Part shown: positions 5,418-12,555 of the stretch, piece after piece
Layout: the number at the start of each line of letters is the position of its first letter
Numbering within the stretch: position 1 is the first letter of the stretch
Made by a program: the position numbers and the translations under genes
Notes under the pieces: generated by a model
Seen by the model: only the letters and a program-made list of their open reading frames with translations
Told to the model about the DNA's origin: nothing
Database searches by the model: none
Source: Alphaproteobacteria bacterium
GTDB lineage: Bacteria; Pseudomonadota; Alphaproteobacteria; UBA828
Reading direction: 5' to 3'
DNA: 64,000 nt
Assembly: GCA_965221125.1 (NCBI GenBank)
Contig: CBDCRW010000006.1
Span: 416,001-480,000 of the forward strand

Positions 5418-6619
5418 CCGCGGCGCAGGCGACGTTCGAGACGCAAGCGGGCGGCATGCTCGCCTACAACGTCATGCACTTCGTGCGGGGCCTGCGCGGC
5501 ACTGGCCTGCCGGCGGGGCCGGGCAAGACCATCGAGGCGGTGCGCGCGGTCGAGGCGGTCGATCCCACCCGGCGCAGCGACCTCTACTGGGCGCTCCACG
5601 CCGTGCTCGTGGAGCGGCGCGACCAGCACGACATCTTCGACCAGGCGTTTCACCTGTTCTGGCGCGAGATACGCATGCAGAGCGCGACCCACGGGCCGGT
5701 CATGGCGTCGGACAGGCTGCCGCAGCCGGAGGCGCCGCCGGCGAGCCGCCGGGCCAGCGAGGCCATCGCGCCCCGCCTGCCGGACGAGGAGGAGGAACAG
5801 GAAAACGTCGAGATCGAGCTCGACGCGGTGCTCACCTTCTCGCCCCAGGAAGTGCTGCAGGAGATGGATTTCGAGGACATGTCGGCGGACGAGCTGGCCG
5901 AGGCGAAGCGGGCGATCGCGGCGCTCCGGCTGCCGATCAAGCCGGTGCCGACGCGGCGCTTCCGGCCGGATCAGCTTGGGCGCAGGATCGACATGCGGGC
6001 GACGCTCCGCGCGAGTCTCCGCTCGAGCGGCGACCTCATGCCGCTCAAGCGCCGCTCCCGCGCCGAGCGCCTGCCGACGCTGGTGGTGCTCTGCGACGTG
6101 TCGGGCTCGATGAGCCGCTACTCGCGCATGTTCCTGCATTTCGTCCACGCCGTGACCAACGACCGCGACCGGGTGCACAGCTTCCTCTTCGGCACCCGGC
6201 TTACCAACATCACGCGCTATCTCCGGCACCGCGACGTGGACGTGGCCGTCGGCGCCGCGAGCAGCGCCGTCCACGACTGGTCCGGCGGCACGCGGATCGG
6301 CCCCTGCCTCAAGGACTTCAACCACCACTGGTCGCGCCGCGTGCTGGCCCAGGGCGCGCTGGTGCTGCTGATCACCGACGGGCTCGACCGCGACGATCTC
6401 GGCATCCTCCAGGCCGAGGTGGAGCGGCTGCACAAGTCCTGCCGCCGCCTGATCTGGCTCAACCCGCTACTCCGCTACGAGGGCTTCAGGCCCGAGGCCG
6501 GCGGCGTGCGCACCATCCTGCCGCATATCGACGACTTCCGGCCCGTCCACAACATCGCGAGCCTCATGGACATCGCGACCGCGCTGAGCGCGCCCGCGCC
6601 GGGCGAGGTGTGGGGTTAG
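5414..6619 (+). CDS. CoxE-type VWA-domain protein
   Basis: [33 protein letters not shown]; GTG start overlaps the AAA stop. Confidence 0.88.
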
Positions 6620-6840
6620 GAAACCCGCACCATGGTGCGGTGCACGGGGCAGGCAGGTGGGGGCAGGCTCTGCGGATGCAGCGCGAAGACCATCTGTTGT
6701 TTTCCGGTCTAGCCGGATAGAAGCACGGGTTTTTTTCTCACTTTGATTGGTTGGTGGATTTCCCGGGATGGTGGCCGAGTGCGGGAAGGACGCTGCCTGC
6801 GGCATTTTTTTGATCCTCAGCAGAATCCTCATTGCTGTTG

Positions 6841-6974
6841 AAGCTGTGGAGCGGTGGGCGCGAGATCGGCGAGTGTGGTCAGGCGGTGGGCAAGCGCCAG
6901 CTTGTCCACGGGCTGTCCACACGGTCCGCAGGACGCCGATCGGTCCGCAGGACGCGTCCACGGCTCCACAGCTT
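6841..6974. other. Long branched hairpin inside the transposon left end
   Basis: AAGCTGTGGAGC/GCTCCACAGCTT 12-bp stem with nested stems and two TCC-GCA-GGA mini-hairpins. Confidence 0.75.
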
Positions 6975-7063
6975 GGCGGCGGCGGGGAGCGTCCGTAATC
7001 TTGGCCTCTCACTGAACGACAAAGAGAGGCCCGGGGGACGGAACTCCCGCCGGGCCAGGGCCG

Positions 7064-7699
7064 GTGCAGCTTCGCTACGAAACGGGGCTCACCAGCGAGG
7101 AATACGTTAAGACCGAGGCGTGGCGCGACGCAAGGCTTGAGCGCTGCCCGAATCACCCGCACGGCGGATGTTCTGTGGCAAGCCACGGCACCTACGAGCG
7201 GAAGACCCCGCCCGGCGCAAGGGTTCCTCGCTGGTATTGCCGTGAGAGCCATACGACCATCGGCCTGCTGGCCGACTGTCTGGCGGCGCGGCTGCCGGGC
7301 ACGCTCGATGCGCTGGAAGCGGTTGTTGTCGTGGCGGAGGAGGCCGGCAGCCTGGAGGAGGCAGCGGACGAGGTGCGCTGCCCCGAGGACGAGGACGCCA
7401 TCGAGCTTCCCGGCGCCGTGCGTTGGATCCGCCGCAGGCTGAAGCTTGTGCACGACGCGCTTGTGCGCGTCATCGGCCTGATCCCCGACCTGCTCGCGGG
7501 CTGCGCGCCCACCATGAGCGCGGTGCGCGAGCGTCTGAAGAGCGACAGCGCGTTGATGGAACTGCGCGGCCTGGTCGCCGGGCAGCTCCGGACGCTACCC
7601 GCGCCTCTGGGCTTCCAACCCCACGGCATCGACGTGGGGAATCGCAAACCGCAGTTCCAACAACGGGCGGGGCCGGACCCGCCGCCGGAGAGTTCGTAG
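7064..7699 (+). CDS. Transposon-associated Cys/His-rich hypothetical protein (putative Zn-binding, possible HTH)
   Basis: CPNHPHGGC...HGTY...RWYC...H motif; GTG start; directly upstream of the transposase. Confidence 0.75.
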   Translation: MQLRYETGLTSEEYVKTEAWRDARLERCPNHPHGGCSVASHGTYERKTPPGARVPRWYCRESHTTIGLLADCLAARLPGTLDALEAVVVVAEEAGSLEEAADEVRCPEDEDAIELPGAVRWIRRRLKLVHDALVRVIGLIPDLLAGCAPTMSAVRERLKSDSALMELRGLVAGQLRTLPAPLGFQPHGIDVGNRKPQFQQRAGPDPPPESS

Positions 7700-7744
7700 C
7701 GTGACGATCCCGGGGCCAGGGAGTCCCTGAACGAGGATCGCACC

Positions 7745-9073
7745 ATGAACAGCTCAGACGACGACCTTCGCCAACAGATCGCGCTCTTCCGATACGACGT
7801 CATCGCCGATCTGGTGCATCTGCCCGTGGGTGCACCGGGTGCCGGCGCGATGATGCGCGCCAAAGCCGAGAAGACCTACACGATCCCCGGAACCACCAGG
7901 ACCCGGGTCGCCGCCGAGACCATGCGGCGCTGGATCAAGGACTACCGCTACGGCGGCTTCGACGCGCTCTACCCCAAGCCCCGCACCGACCGGGGGAAGC
8001 CCCGGCGGCTGCCGCCCGAGGTCGCCGAGCGCCTCATCGCGCTGAAGACCGAGAACGACGCATTGTCGGTTCGCGCCATCATCCAGAAGGTCAAGGAGGA
8101 GGGTATCGACCACCCGCTCGCCTCGTCCACCGTGCACCGCCTCTTCAGCCGCGAGGGCCTGTTCGACAAGAAGCCGCCCGACGGGGCGGATCGCCGCCGC
8201 TTCGCCTTCCGGCATGCCGGCGAGATGTGGATGAGCGACGTCATGCACGGACCCAAGGTCCGGCACGGCCGAACCCGGCGCAAGACCTACCTGATCGCCT
8301 TCATCGACGACGCCACCCGCGTCATCCCGTTCGCCGCCTTCGCCATGGCGGAGAACACTGCGGCGTTCCTGCCGGTGTTCAAGGACGCGCTGATCCGGCG
8401 CGGCCTCCCGGCCCGCTTGTACGTCGACAACGGAAGCGCCTACCGCTCCCGTCATCTCTCCCTGGTCTGCGCCAGGCTCGGCGTTGCGTTGATTCACGCA
8501 AGGGCGTTCCAGCCAGCGGGAAAGGGTAAGATCGAGCGCTTCTTCCGCACCCTCCGGGCCGGCTGGCTCCGCCACCTCGGCGATGACGTCGACAGCCTGG
8601 AGGCGCTCAACCGCAGCCTCTGGGCCTGGATCGAGGGGGAGTATCACAACAGCCCGCATCGTGGCCTCGACGAGGGGCGCACCCCGCTTGAGCAGTGGGC
8701 GCTGGCCTCGGCCGGCGTGCGCTATCCCGACGCCACCATGGACCTCGACGATCTGTTCCTCTTCGAGGCCAGGCGCCGTGTCTACAAGGACCGCACCGTT
8801 AGTCTGAACGGCCGCGTCTACGAGGTCGACGCCCTCCTGGTGGGTCAGAACGTCATCCTGCGCTACGACCCGGCCGCGCCGCCCTCGCGCCCTCTCGACG
8901 TGGTCCATGACGGCAAGCCGGCCGGCAAGGCCAGCCCTCTCGACGCCTACGCCAATACCGCCGTCAGGCGCACCTACCCGGCCAGGGAGATCGAGGCCGA
9001 AGATCCGGCGCCCGAGCCTCCGCCCTCGCCGCTGGCCATGCGCAACCTCAAGGACAAGAAGGAGGACGAGTGA
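7745..9073 (+). CDS. DDE transposase (rve/integrase core, Mu-transposase C-terminal type)
   Basis: N-terminal HTH; WMSD...FIDDATR...YVDNGSAY...GKIERFFRT catalytic D-D-E; C-terminal RRVYKDRTVSLNGRVYEV. Confidence 0.95.
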   Translation: MNSSDDDLRQQIALFRYDVIADLVHLPVGAPGAGAMMRAKAEKTYTIPGTTRTRVAAETMRRWIKDYRYGGFDALYPKPRTDRGKPRRLPPEVAERLIALKTENDALSVRAIIQKVKEEGIDHPLASSTVHRLFSREGLFDKKPPDGADRRRFAFRHAGEMWMSDVMHGPKVRHGRTRRKTYLIAFIDDATRVIPFAAFAMAENTAAFLPVFKDALIRRGLPARLYVDNGSAYRSRHLSLVCARLGVALIHARAFQPAGKGKIERFFRTLRAGWLRHLGDDVDSLEALNRSLWAWIEGEYHNSPHRGLDEGRTPLEQWALASAGVRYPDATMDLDDLFLFEARRRVYKDRTVSLNGRVYEVDALLVGQNVILRYDPAAPPSRPLDVVHDGKPAGKASPLDAYANTAVRRTYPAREIEAEDPAPEPPPSPLAMRNLKDKKEDE

Positions 9074-9873
9074 TGTACCTGCGCCACTTCGCCTTCACCC
9101 GCCTGCCCTTCGAGACCCCGGCAGAGACCGACGAGCTGTTCGAGTCCAACGCGCGCCGCGAGGCCGAGGCCAGGCTCGGCCACCTCATCGACCTGCGCGG
9201 CATCGGCCTGCTCACCGGCGAGGTGGGCTCCGGCAAGACCACCGTGTGCCGGCATCTGACCGCGCAGCTTCATCCAGGCCTCTACCGGGTCCACTACGTC
9301 TCGCTGACCACGGGCAACGTGCTCGACATGTACAAGGCGATCGCGTGGGAGATCGGCCTGCCCATCGAGCGCTCCCGCGCCTCGGCCTATCAGGCCATCC
9401 GAAACGAGATCTCCCGCCTCGTCACCGAGGCCAAGCAGCTGCCGGTCCTCGTCATCGACGAGGCCCATCATCTGCGCAACGACGTCCTTGAGGACCTGCG
9501 CCTGCTCACCAACTTCGCCATGGATGCAGAGCAGCGCCTGTGCCTCGTCCTCGTCGGTCTGACCGAGCTCAGGCGCCGCCTGGCCATGGCCATGCACGAA
9601 TCCCTCAGCCAGCGCCTCGTCGTCCGCCACCACCTGAGCGGTCTCGACCGCGACGAGGTCGACGCTTACATCAAGCACCGCCTCAGGCTCGCGGGATGCG
9701 AACTGCCGCTGTTCGAAGAGCCCGCCGTCGAGGCCCTGTTCCAGGGCGCGCGCGGCCTGCCGCGCCAGATCAACCGCATCGCCCACTACGCGCTCTCCGC
9801 CGCCGCTCTCGACGAGGCGAGGACCGTCAGTGCCGACCACCTGCAGCACGCGCTCGAGGAACTGCGGCCATGA
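9073..9873 (+). CDS. ExeA/TniB/TnsC-like AAA+ ATPase (transposition regulator)
   Basis: Walker A GEVGSGKT, Walker B VIDEAHHL, ESLSQRL, GLPRQIN; TGATG coupling to the transposase. Confidence 0.92.
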   Translation: MYLRHFAFTRLPFETPAETDELFESNARREAEARLGHLIDLRGIGLLTGEVGSGKTTVCRHLTAQLHPGLYRVHYVSLTTGNVLDMYKAIAWEIGLPIERSRASAYQAIRNEISRLVTEAKQLPVLVIDEAHHLRNDVLEDLRLLTNFAMDAEQRLCLVLVGLTELRRRLAMAMHESLSQRLVVRHHLSGLDRDEVDAYIKHRLRLAGCELPLFEEPAVEALFQGARGLPRQINRIAHYALSAAALDEARTVSADHLQHALEELRP

Positions 9874-10910
9874 CCGGCTTCCCGACCCGCGCCCCGATCG
9901 AGCTGGAGGAGCGGCCGCGCGAGCAGCAATGGCTGGTGGACACGCTATGGGGCGAGCAGGCCGTCGGCATCGTCGGCGGCGAGCCGAAGTGCGGCAAGTC
10001 CATCCTGGCGCTGGACCTCGCGGTCGCAGTCGCCGCCGGCGTCCCATGCCTGCGGCACTTCGCCCCGGCCCGGCCTGGCCCGGTCCTGCTGTTCGCCGCA
10101 GAAGACGCCGGCCACCTCGTGCGCAAGCGCCTGCAGGGGATCGCCCGCGCCGCAGGCGCCCGCTTCGAGACCCTCGACATCGCCGTCATCGACGTGCCCA
10201 CACTGCGCCTCGACCATCTCGACGACCGCCGCCGCCTGCAGCAGACCGTGGAGCGCATCGCACCGCGCCTCGTGGTCCTCGACCCCCTGGTCCGCCTGCA
10301 CGGCGTGGACGAGAACACGGTTGCGGACGTCGCCCCGATCCTCGGCTTCCTGCGCGACCTGCAACGCCGCTTCGAGACCGCCGTCCTCCTCGTCCACCAC
10401 GCCCGCAAGAGCGGGGCCACGAGGCCGGGGCAGGCCCTGCGGGGCAGCAGTGAGCTGCACGCCTGGGGGGACTCGAACCTCTACCTGCGCCGCCGGGACC
10501 GGCAGACCCTCATGACCGTCGAGCATCGCGCCGCACGCGGTCTCGACGACATCGAGATCGAGCTCAAGGAAGACGGAGAGGAGCCCTCCTTCCGGCTGCG
10601 CCAGCCGCCCACGGCCGGCGGCGGGGCGCCTCAGCCCGAAACACCCGAATGCCGCGTTCTCAAGGCGCTCGCCGACGCCGGGGCGCCGCTCTCGCAACGC
10701 CAGATCCGGGAACGCGCCGCGACCCGGCACAAGACCGTCGGCGTAATCTTGCAAAAGCTCGTCCAGGAGGGTCGCGTCGCGCGCAACGCCGAGGGCGGCT
10801 ACAGCGTCGTCGCAGGCGCAGCGGACAAGCGGGCGGCGGCCGCCGCCGCCAACGGCAGCAGTCGGCCGCAGGCCCCGCGGTTCCCGGAGCCCGGTTCCGC
10901 CAACGCCTAG
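9870..10910 (+). CDS. RecA-fold AAA_25/RepA-like ATPase (helicase-like) with C-terminal winged-HTH-like segment
   Basis: WLVDTLW, Walker A GEPKCGKS, FAAED, Walker B VVLDPL, LVHHARK, LRGSSELHAW; C-terminal LSQRQIRE...VILQKLVQEGRV; ATGA coupling. Confidence 0.85.
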   Translation: MTGFPTRAPIELEERPREQQWLVDTLWGEQAVGIVGGEPKCGKSILALDLAVAVAAGVPCLRHFAPARPGPVLLFAAEDAGHLVRKRLQGIARAAGARFETLDIAVIDVPTLRLDHLDDRRRLQQTVERIAPRLVVLDPLVRLHGVDENTVADVAPILGFLRDLQRRFETAVLLVHHARKSGATRPGQALRGSSELHAWGDSNLYLRRRDRQTLMTVEHRAARGLDDIEIELKEDGEEPSFRLRQPPTAGGGAPQPETPECRVLKALADAGAPLSQRQIRERAATRHKTVGVILQKLVQEGRVARNAEGGYSVVAGAADKRAAAAAANGSSRPQAPRFPEPGSANA

Positions 10911-11241
10911 GGGTTCGAGCCGGAACCGCCGTCGGGAACCACCCTTCCCCAACGGTCCGGAAGGCGCTGCGCCTCCACCGGGATACTACGTCAGGTGAGC
11001 GGCCAGTCCGTGGCCGGAAGCTTGCTTCAGGCCATGGCAGCACTTCGTCGTGTGGACGGTGGCGAGTCACCCGAAGGGCCGAAGCGAAGCGCAGGAGCGG
11101 CGCAGCCGCTTGACGCGCCGACGGCCGCGCGACACCTCGTCAGCTCTCCTCAAGCACCAGTCCAAACCTCAATCAGACAGCGACCCCGGACCGCCCGCAG
11201 AGACCATGAGCTCCTACGCTTCGATCCGGAAAAGACCGAGC

Positions 11242-11315
11242 AATCTGGGAAATCAGGGCAGCGATCACGTCAAATAATCTGGGAGATTCGGCGTCAAATA
11301 ACGTGCGAAACAACA
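11242..11315. repeat. Transposon right-end internal repeats (putative transposase binding sites)
   Basis: AATCTGGGA at 11242 and 11276; CGTCAAATAA at 11268 and 11292. Confidence 0.7.
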
Positions 11316-11410
11316 CCATCGCCCTTTCGGGGAAGTCGGGCCGGAGCGGCTCCGGGGGGCCGGCTCGCGGCCGGGCGCTCGGCCGGCGGGCTCCCGCCGC
11401 CGCCGGGACG

Positions 11411-11544
11411 GGCCAGCTTGGGCCACCATGAGCCGCCTTGGACCACTTTGGGCCACTTTGTGCCACTTTGTGCCACTTTGTGCCGCCCGTTTCGGACCAC
11501 TTTGGGCCACTTTGGACCGGCATAGACCGGAATAGGCCGGATTA
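11411..11544. repeat. 10-bp tandem repeat array (consensus KRCCACTTTG, degenerate at both ends)
   Basis: GACCACTTTG GGCCACTTTG TGCCACTTTG TGCCACTTTG...; about 13 units with one 4-nt phase shift. Confidence 0.9.
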
Positions 11545-11574
11545 AGGCCCTTCCGTGCAAAACGGCACCGCTCT

Positions 11575-12273
11575 TTACGCTTGTCGCTCGCGACAGCCGG
11601 ACGGGTTCGGCACGGAAATCCTGCCGGCGAGCCAGTCGTCGACGATGTCGGTGGCGGGCACGCCGGCGGCTTCGCTTGCGGAGAGCGCCTTAATCTCGAG
11701 CCAGGCGCTCACCAGCGCGTAGCCGAGGGCGTATCCCGCATGGCGCGGCCAATCGGGGTCGTCCTTGCGGCCGAACATCCAGTTGTCGTGCTCGTAGTCG
11801 TCCGCAGACAGGAGCGGGCGGGCGCGCTGCGCCATCCTCCCCAGAATCTCATCGTCGAGCGCCACCGCGTAGAAGGGCGTGGGCGCGCCGACCTCCTCCT
11901 CGAAGCACTGGGCCAGGCCTTCGCTGACGAAGCGGGCGCCCAGCGTGTACGCCTCGACGCCGCTGCGAAGCCGCGCCACATGGTGAATCTCGTGCGCCAG
12001 CGTCGCAAAGACCCTGTCGCAGCGCTCGGGGTCCTGCAGCCGGGGCGAGGCCGGGTCCACCGTGAGCGTGATGCGGCCGGGACCGTTCGCGCGGCCGCTG
12101 AGGCCCCACTCCCGCAGCACCCAGGGCTCGGGCGCCACGACGATATCGAGGCGGTCCAGTCGAATGTACTGCGCGATCTGCTCGTTCGCCGCTTCGAGCT
12201 CGCACATGACATCGTTTCTGAGCAGCGCCGGGATCTCGTCCATCGCATCCAGGAGAAGGATTTCGATCGTCAT
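11575..12273 (-). CDS. Predicted Zn-dependent protease (DUF2268-like)
   Basis: HExxH (AHEIHH), downstream SEGLA, GYALGY. Confidence 0.75.
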   Translation of the reverse strand: MTIEILLLDAMDEIPALLRNDVMCELEAANEQIAQYIRLDRLDIVVAPEPWVLREWGLSGRANGPGRITLTVDPASPRLQDPERCDRVFATLAHEIHHVARLRSGVEAYTLGARFVSEGLAQCFEEEVGAPTPFYAVALDDEILGRMAQRARPLLSADDYEHDNWMFGRKDDPDWPRHAGYALGYALVSAWLEIKALSASEAAGVPATDIVDDWLAGRISVPNPSGCRERQA

Positions 12274-12471
12274 GGCTCTCCCGGTCGGCGACGTCCCGAG
12301 CGCCGTCTGTAGCGAGCGGCCGGCGACAAAGATAATGCCGCGCGCGTCGACATCCATGCCGGGACGGCATTCCGCAAGGCCGCCGTGCCCTGCGGTGGCC
12401 CGTGCTTGCCATCGAAACCGGGGCGTGGAAGGTTTCGTCGCCGCGCGGGGAGCTACGGGACGGCGGATGAA

Positions 12472-12555
12472 TTGCAGAGCGTCGGTCTGGTGATATTCGA
12501 CTGCGACGGGGTCATCGCCGACAGCGAAGTTCTGAGCGCACGTGTCCTGGTCCGG
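12472..12555 (+). pseudogene. N-terminal remnant of a HAD-family hydrolase
   Basis: LVIFDCDGVIADSE (HAD motif I), after which recognisable sequence is lost within about 28 codons. Confidence 0.6.

Follow-up and report, generated by a model that had tools for sequence, protein, structure and literature searches.

We analysed a 64,000-nucleotide stretch of an alphaproteobacterial genome (GTDB lineage UBA828; GenBank assembly GCA_965221125.1, contig CBDCRW010000006.1, positions 416,001 to 480,000 of the forward strand; hereafter the window), which carries a 4.6-kb DDE transposon with four genes in the order orf1-tnpA-exeA-aaa25, an order shared by its relatives. The last gene, aaa25, encodes a protein that is predicted to join a RepA/DnaB-like RecA-fold ATPase to a C-terminal winged helix, and an origin-like site of opposed hexanucleotide repeats lies at its 3' end. 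We propose, with a confidence that stops just short of even, that a widespread and undescribed class of DDE transposons has acquired both an initiator-helicase of phages and the iteron origin that belongs to it, and would thereby be able to fire its own replication, either at the strand-transfer intermediate or on a copied-out circle, from a swappable cassette that follows the host community.

A preliminary description of this DNA, made from the letters alone, had reported that the aaa25 start codon overlaps the TGA stop of the ExeA-like gene, and the overlap is confirmed as ATGA at 9870-9873. All four RecA-fold motifs that it had listed are present in the 346-residue translation (GEPKCGKS at residues 37-44, VVLDP at 135-139, LVHHARK at 174-180 and RGSS at 191-194), and the element ends that it had placed at 6695 and 11315 are exact: 20 copies with identical ends were recovered from the same genome (blastn of 6001-12500 against the genome), which encodes the AAA_25 protein 20 times at 100% identity. 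Pfam AAA_25 (PF13481) matched residues 11-182 (E = 9.4e-37; 127 bits, cut-off 27). The C-terminal segment, previously called winged-helix-turn-helix-like, matched Pfam MarR_2 over residues 259-306 with 24.8 bits, slightly below the cut-off of 27, and an AlphaFold2 (AF2) model built from a 37-row alignment (pLDDT 87.4, pTM 0.72) has a domain of three helices and a wing at residues 259-313, preceded by a RecA-like core (residues 1-245) and a weak linker and followed by a disordered tail. RSF1010 RepA (1g8y) was the sole significant sequence match in the PDB (E = 9.6e-10). Foldseek ranked the C-terminal domains of DnaB (2q6t, 2r6a) and RepA (1nlf, 1g8y) at the top (E = 6e-12 to 6e-11; TM 0.71-0.74 normalised to RepA), followed by RadA, Rad51 paralogues and KaiC, and PHROG matched the protein with phage primase/helicases in their helicase portion (phrog_906, E = 5.7e-20; phrog_239, phrog_3228 and phrog_19), all of which bears out the earlier suggestion of a likeness to RepA-type helicases and to the helicase part of primase-helicases such as those of phage satellites.

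The Walker A, AED, LD, HH and RGSS stretches of the AAA_25 protein align with their counterparts in RSF1010 RepA. Invariant in the 37-row alignment, which reaches down to 34% identity, are K40, K43, E78, D79, D138, E148, H176, H177, K180, R191, G192, S193, E218 and R220. The NTPase residues of RepA and DnaB are thereby all represented, with K43 as the Walker A lysine, E78/D79 as the acidic pair, D138 as the Walker B aspartate, H176/H177 as the sensor histidines and R191 as the trans-acting arginine, roles that we presume from the RepA literature. At the level of the predicted model, the assignment as a RepA/DnaB-like RecA-fold ATPase with a C-terminal winged helix is confirmed. RSF1010 RepA and DnaB, hexameric helicases of superfamily 4 (SF4) with the RecA fold, share fold and catalytic motifs with the AAA_25 protein, from which they differ in that the latter has an added C-terminal winged helix, lacks the N-terminal domain of DnaB, is not accompanied by a separate RepC-type initiator and is encoded within a transposition operon. 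The AAA_25 family comprises 478 clusters (50% identity) at E 1e-30, and the sole name carried by its members is 'AAA family ATPase'. Q..LP[LF]-like peptides (e.g. QLSLPL, QLDLPF), which we take to resemble clamp-binding motifs, form the C-terminus of several distant members, and about half of the members are tail-less; the tail of the window protein was rejected as such a peptide, its RFPEPGS being simply what the GGTTCC repeats encode.

Scanning a single genome from each species yielded 79 aaa25 loci, the neighbours of which were identified by tblastn. The exeA-like gene was directly upstream in 77 of these loci and a transposase gene was present in 71, and the loci lacking a match were contig ends or truncated copies. 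A metagenome scan that reached more distant relatives, with about 50% identity to the AAA_25 protein of the window, gave 80 loci; here the exeA-like gene was directly upstream in all 76 loci having at least 200 nt of upstream sequence, and a transposase was matched in 56 of the 80, the 24 misses all having at most 1028 nt of contig upstream. Co-occurrence with the transposition genes, proposed in the preliminary description as a check, was thus found in both scans. An in-frame ATG or GTG overlapped the exeA stop codon in 25 of 26 representative elements, aaa25 was intact in 112 of 117 distinct versions, and dN/dS ratios against four relatives of the closest type (A-type, see below) were 0.22-0.31 for aaa25 and 0.17-0.29 for tnpA. 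Among 400 other alphaproteobacterial genomes only G283 contained a close relative (49%); a transposase and an ATPase, each at 35%, lie beside it and are arranged as in the window element. As judged from these comparisons, aaa25 is a conserved core gene of the transposon operon and not cargo. The outcome that the preliminary description had named as speaking against it, a gene carried only sporadically as cargo or a truncated fragment of an unrelated element, does not apply because the gene is conserved, intact and translationally coupled across deep lineages.

The hexamer site at the end of aaa25 (Table 1), which goes beyond what the preliminary description had noticed, lies about 400 bp inside the right end of the element. 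GGTTCC or GGAACC occurs 15 times in the whole window, compared with 26 occurrences expected. We tested the site in 90 distinct downstream regions, each representing a lineage, against 1800 shuffles and coding control windows. A layout of two to three direct units, a spacer and two to three inverted units just past the winged-helix codons was found in 80 of the 90 lineages, in none of the 1800 shuffles and in none of 90 regions in each of two coding windows, the unit pattern behind this count having been derived from the same data. An unbiased test for exact 6-mers was positive in 41/90 lineages versus 0/1800 shuffles and 2/90 in a coding control window. A third test, for 5-mer repeats, was positive in 70/90 lineages but also in 33/90 regions of one coding window and in 135/1800 shuffles and was rejected as unspecific. 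The ten site-negative regions include two interrupted copies and five that by eye contain degenerate versions. Spacers are mostly 20-23 nt long (median 21), and CTA or TAG is present in 65 of 80. Folded as single-stranded DNA (ssDNA), the site forms a strong hairpin in several lineages (z -4.7 to -5.9).

The unit itself varies among lineages (GGAACC, GGAACG, GGTAAC, GGAAG, GGAAAC), and it tracks the residue that follows a conserved arginine at the start of the third (recognition) helix of the winged helix. Histidine or lysine at this position was paired with GGAACC in 17/17 cases, threonine with GGAAG or GGAAA in 14/14, proline with GGTAAC in 3/3 and NA with GGAACG in 13/17. A tree-aware test based on the ATPase-domain tree found the informative independent pairs to be concordant (3.1:0, 2.3:0 and 4.9:0.1). 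We infer from these sequence patterns that the winged helix binds the hexamers.

Elements related to that of the window fall into two types with different backbones. All four proteins of A-type loci are 73-99% identical to those of the window, whereas B-type loci encode an AAA_25 protein that is 67-80% identical, a transposase and an ATPase that are only 25-32% and 25-33% identical, respectively, and a different orf1; A and B transposases are about 27% identical. B-type elements are likewise multi-copy and have sharp ends (4.4-5.2 kb). DNA similarity between the two types (74-80%, blastn) is confined to 9864-11136; it begins at the start of aaa25 and stops about 180 bp short of the right end. 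Each backbone has its own extreme ends, which contain the presumed transposase sites, and the cassette is common to both. In the FastTree phylogeny of the transposase, a very long branch lay between all B-type elements and a group of A-type elements plus the soil locus L179. The AAA_25 tree, also calculated with FastTree, instead placed A-type elements with B-type elements from sponge and marine metagenomes, and L179 with soil B-type elements. Constraining the AAA_25 tree so that the carriers of A-type transposases form one group cost 113 log-likelihood units (approximately unbiased (AU) test, p-AU = 5e-7, with groups that were named after both trees had been inspected); the test did not discriminate between A-type elements nested within their B-type neighbours and A-type elements as their sister (p = 0.63). 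These alignments and trees show that aaa25 and its downstream DNA travel as a 1.27-kb module between transposon backbones. The cassette follows habitat and not transposase lineage, which fits a part that would work with the host replisome and not with one particular transposase. A gene encoding DUF3991 and Toprim domains directly follows the hexamer site, inside the element ends, in 5 of 22 representative elements. Examples of this fifth, primase-like gene in B-type elements are located at L057:7102-7971 and L078:7083-7946.

Only four relatives of the AAA_25 protein were detected in 2.9 million viral contigs, none of which adjoins a transposase or ExeA gene. Two of the relatives, 37-38% identical, are encoded on phage contigs (L202 and L204) that have genes for terminase, portal and Mu-like head protease, and the genes are followed by hexamer arrays of five GGAACC and four GGTTCC units in L202 and three of each in L204. 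Another alphaproteobacterial genome (L090) contains a 31%-identical AAA_25 plus winged-helix gene, after which two TTCACA and two TGTGAA units are found. The same gene-plus-site layout in phages and L090 without transposons thus shows that the unit is older than its life in transposons and came from replication modules; its sequence relatives point to a phage replication module as the origin of the AAA_25 protein.

Fold, conservation of ATPase residues, gene-plus-site layout, core status, cassette exchange and phage ancestry form the observed basis of the mechanism that we propose. The transposon is a Mu/Tn552/Tn5053-style module of DDE transposase and AAA+ ATPase without TnsA, resolvase or recognisable TniQ: a Pfam scan of its four open reading frames detected neither a TnsA-like gene nor a resolvase, and family searches with orf1, the AF2 model of which reached a pLDDT of 41, recovered no recognisable TniQ/TnsD-type selector. 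Since TnsA-like and resolvase genes are missing, second-strand processing would have to rely on replication or repair. We consider the chances evenly balanced that the AAA_25 protein serves as a self-loading initiator-helicase with sequence specificity, by which replication of the element is started in the course of transposition. Its C-terminal winged helix would bind the opposed hexamer sets that lie directly at the 3' end of aaa25, and the ATPase domains would form rings at this site. The rings would then open the DNA and recruit the host replisome or, in some lineages, the element-encoded Toprim primase, and the element DNA would be copied as a step of transposition, either by replication of the strand-transfer intermediate or by copying-out of the element. 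Ring formation, unwinding and the link to a transposition step are, like hexamer binding, inferred. The mechanism fits the absence of a second-strand nuclease or resolvase and the exchange of the cassette by habitat. The preliminary description had offered three functions unranked: replication of the element or of an excised circle, replicative transposition, and target selection. Among these, the new evidence favours those of the replication type over target selection because an iteron-like site adjoins the gene, phage relatives share this layout and some lineages have a Toprim gene.

Several observations weigh against this mechanism. The A+T content of the spacer exceeds that of the gene only a little (0.35 vs 0.30), and no obvious unwinding element is present. 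The hairpin of the site in the window's own lineage is no better than that of shuffled sequences (z -0.62), and only the hexamers are kept; hairpins that are strong elsewhere while this lineage retains the hexamers alone favour recognition of the units rather than of a continuous hairpin, and the hairpin itself may act as a terminator, an RNA element or an ssDNA signal. The link between recognition-helix residue and hexamer was not significant once relatedness was allowed for (p = 0.06-0.5), the pairs being too few, and the phages L202 and L204 have GGAACC units yet RSEA at the 'code' position, so a simple residue-to-base rule is not valid over that distance. The glycine preceding the Walker A lysine varies within the AAA_25 family (37-row alignment), most elements are without a primase gene, and distant transposase/ExeA relatives without any aaa25 exist (e.g. 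on a G066 contig of 4950 bp). Fifteen of the 20 copies in the genome are simple insertions with intact 5-bp duplications, which alone give no sign of replicative transposition. Finally, no junction of right end to left end was present among the joints listed for Logan contigs from four runs, contigs that give no copy depth.

The initiator-helicase core of this mechanism is shared by an explanation that places replication on a free circle: the transposase would copy out or excise a circle, which the helicase-iteron cassette would replicate as a small episome, thereby amplifying the transposition intermediate and aiding spread between hosts. A rep gene with an adjacent origin is indeed the layout of autonomous replicons and satellites, and the transposase scores close to NCBIfam IS481 (NF033577; 201.9 bits, under the cut-off of 224), a family whose relatives use circular intermediates. 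However, the Mu-transpos_C domain, the AAA+ partner and the 5-bp duplications indicate chemistry of the Mu/Tn7 type, in which circles are not known. Near-identical elements in records labelled as different phyla (e.g. L011 at 93%, on a 442-kb contig) would be explained by spread between hosts, but for repeats the phylum labels of metagenome bins cannot be relied on, and a tblastn search of 72,556 plasmid records returned no match to the AAA_25 protein at E 1e-10. The missing right-to-left junction also counts against circles, if weakly because the data are contigs. We consider such a plasmid-like phase unlikely. The role of a transposition regulator or target selector, in which the winged helix would bind the hexamers or similar target sites and the ATPase would act as a switch or remodeller in transpososome assembly, immunity or target choice without replicative unwinding, we regard as rather improbable. 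This role would account for the translational coupling to the AAA+ transposition ATPase that is kept in 25/26 elements, for the position of the hexamer site near the right end, where the transposase sites are, and for a single-member ExeA-AAA_25 fusion (P0005), and the selector role is vacant in so far as orf1 is not recognisable as TniQ-like. It is at odds with the 20 insertion sites, which have no evident common sequence and agree only in a G+C-rich 5-bp duplication, and with the exchange of the protein between backbones whose transposase and ATPase are 25-30% identical, which ill fits a tight, specific partner; moreover, the gene-plus-site layout recurs in phages without a transposase, and all catalytic residues of a motor ATPase are kept.

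That the gene plays no part in moving the element, being a hitch-hiking remnant of a phage replication module or cargo directed against phages or plasmids, appears very improbable. The cassette is phage-derived and modular, and transposons often carry cargo beside an end, but the gene was found in every lineage examined, at a constant position in the operon, intact in nearly all versions and with its start fused to the exeA stop. Its dN/dS is like that of the transposase, the protein matched no PADLOC defence family, and elements of only 4.4-4.6 kb carry nothing else. The sequence-specific initiator-helicase acting during transposition is our preferred reading.

The element resembles Mu (A/B), Tn552, Tn5053 (TniA/TniB/TniQ) and Tn7-like (TnsB/TnsC) systems in its rve transposase with a Mu-type C-terminal domain and a dedicated AAA+ ATPase, as well as in its TG..CA ends, subterminal repeats and 5-bp duplications. 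Unlike these modules it has a fourth core gene of the RecA-fold helicase type with its own cis site, and it lacks TnsA, resolvase and a recognisable TniQ. To our knowledge, no Mu, Tn552, Tn5053 or Tn7-like system has a RecA-fold helicase gene. Replicative DDE transposition, for which Mu is the model, relies on the host restart machinery for helicase loading at the transposition fork. If the proposed mechanism is true, a transposon supplying its own sequence-specific helicase, in some cases with a primase, would be a different solution from Mu's host dependence and would provide a compact four-gene system for studying the hand-over from transposase to replisome. The proposed mechanism is unusual and testable, and through it transposons would be connected with the self-loading helicases that satellites and viruses use. 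The family being large (478 clusters) and strongly proliferating, it is therefore relevant to genome plasticity in these communities.

A close parallel is provided by the staphylococcal pathogenicity islands (SaPIs). As published (PMC9371898), SaPI Rep proteins are self-loading initiator-helicases whose C-terminal winged helix recognises penta- or hexanucleotide iterons; these iterons follow the rep frame immediately downstream, a central region being flanked on either side by two or more of them in opposite orientations, and a primase gene adjoins rep. The arrangement of helicase ATPase, C-terminal winged helix, downstream opposed hexanucleotide repeats and optional adjacent primase gene is like that of SaPI Rep/PriRep. 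SaPI Reps are SF3 AAA+ proteins whereas the motor here is RecA-fold and RepA/DnaB-type, and the AAA_25 protein is therefore an analogue of SaPI Rep and not a member of that group. The SaPI central region is AT-rich, which the spacer here is only slightly, and SaPIs use tyrosine integrases and replicate after excision, unlike the 4.6-kb DDE transposon. The element is like the self-synthesizing casposons and Polintons in being a transposon that brings part of its own replication machinery. Casposons and Polintons encode a protein-primed family B polymerase together with Cas1 or a retroviral-type integrase (PMC4046053); the element differs in having a helicase-initiator, sometimes with a primase, and no polymerase. 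A literature term search, which covered publications and not ISfinder or TnCentral, found no published bacterial DDE transposon with such a gene, and a term search within a survey of Tn7 target selectors (PMC10293859) likewise found none. The transposon family is large and active and, as it appears, undescribed.

Table 1 Features of the transposon and of the aaa25 cassette (window positions)
Feature	Position	Strand	Description
Whole transposon	6695..11315	+	4621 bp; TG..CA ends; termini TGTTGTTT...AAACAACA
orf1	7064..7699	+	211 aa; Cys/His-rich N-terminal motif C..H..Y.RK.P.G
tnpA, DDE transposase	7745..9073	+	HTH_32 + rve + Mu-transpos_C (Pfam)
exeA-like AAA+ ATPase (AAA_22)	9070..9873	+	Pfam E = 5.7e-27; MuB/TniB/TnsC-type transposase partner
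Exchangeable cassette (aaa25, hexamer site, conserved block)	9864..11136	+	1.27 kb; delimited by blastn, trees and AU test
aaa25, AAA_25 protein gene	9870..10910	+	346 aa; ATG at 9870, TAG stop at 10908-10910
Hexamer site, left arm	10879..10898	+	GGTTCC at 10879-10884 and 10893-10898; within codons of the disordered C-terminal tail
Hexamer site, spacer	10899..10921	+	23 nt; central CTAG containing the stop codon
Hexamer site, right arm	10922..10940	+	GGAACC at 10922-10927 and 10935-10940; inverted relative to the left arm
Conserved non-coding block	10941..11136	+	196 nt; common to A-type and sponge-metagenome B-type elements, absent from soil B-type elements
Right end, lineage-specific	11137..11315	+	subterminal direct repeats CGTCAAATAA (x2) and AATCTGGGA (x2)

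Seventeen of the 20 genomic copies have the full length of 4621 bp, and the remaining three are broken by a 1453-bp IS256-like insertion. Similar multi-copy bursts were found in several metagenome-assembled genomes. The window copy is flanked by the 5-bp target duplication CCATC (6690-6694 and 11316-11320). The duplications are perfect in 15 copies and reciprocally swapped in two; of the other three copies, two match over 4 bp with a shift and one has a single mismatch. The two swapped copies are inverted relative to each other and 40 kb apart (G000:C4:676561 on the minus and C4:716887 on the plus strand; CGGGG/CCCTC). This reciprocal swap indicates an inversion between them, caused by either recombination or intramolecular replicative transposition, both of which predict the identical pattern. 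The 1453-bp insertion sequence (IS) encodes a Mutator/IS256-type transposase and is present in 14 identical copies (e.g. G000:C7:276233-277685), three of which are within the 4.6-kb elements at C5:753863, C6:196564 and C7:271669; two of these three insertions are at most 40 bp apart near the right end of the element (matching window positions 11222-11258).

The subterminal direct repeats at the right end are presumed, from their sequence and position, to be transposase-binding sites. A 22-nt inverted repeat with 91% complementarity (6841-6862 and 6953-6974), which may be regulatory, was found within the 370-bp non-coding left part upstream of orf1. The 196-nt conserved block was rejected as a structured RNA: Rfam contained no match to it, and neither strand gave a folding signal (z -0.39 and -0.07). 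One small stem in this block (10941-11136) shows a compensatory change (GCCGC..GCGGC vs GCGGC..GCCGC). Just beyond the right end, at 11410-11515, there are about ten 10-bp tandem units of GGGCCACTTT; this array was rejected as a set of iterons, as it lies outside the element in a host repeat. The flanks of the window copy (6623-6694 and 11315-11541) adjoin at G000:C4:248500-248771, and related copies are found elsewhere, so the window copy is inserted in a dispersed host repeat. Joints of 6694 to 11333 or 11339 in Logan contigs correspond to related empty copies of this repeat. RNA libraries yielded contigs that span parts of the element, 10171-10850 among them; this may reflect DNA carry-over and is therefore not taken as expression.

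Relatives of the element are also carried by records labelled with other phyla. L011, an A-type element with proteins 86-96% identical to those of the window, has a record title that names Dehalococcoidia, and small contigs titled Acidobacteria, Gemmatimonadota, Poribacteria and Acidimicrobiales carry relatives as well; these records reflect either cross-phylum spread or binning error.

Of the operon partners, orf1 matched no Pfam, NCBIfam or PADLOC family, and its AF2 model was unusable for a fold search; its counterparts in B-type elements match HTH_23. Pfam scores for rve (41.9), Mu-transpos_C (31.6) and AAA_22 (95 bits) are all over their cut-offs. The transposase matched PHROG 310 'transposase' of transposable phages (E = 3.2e-49) and the ExeA-like ATPase PHROG 296 'DNA transposition protein' (E = 1.4e-29); the match of the latter to TniB (PF05621; 20.8 bits) is under the cut-off of 22.4, and transposase and ATPase match TnsB and TnsC weakly. 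Complex prediction for the ExeA-like ATPase with the AAA_25 protein gave a score of 0.00, that is, no answer, and weighs neither way. The fusion protein P0005 (597 aa, 92% identical), which joins the ExeA-like ATPase to the AAA_25 protein, may derive from a one-base indel at the ATGA overlap.

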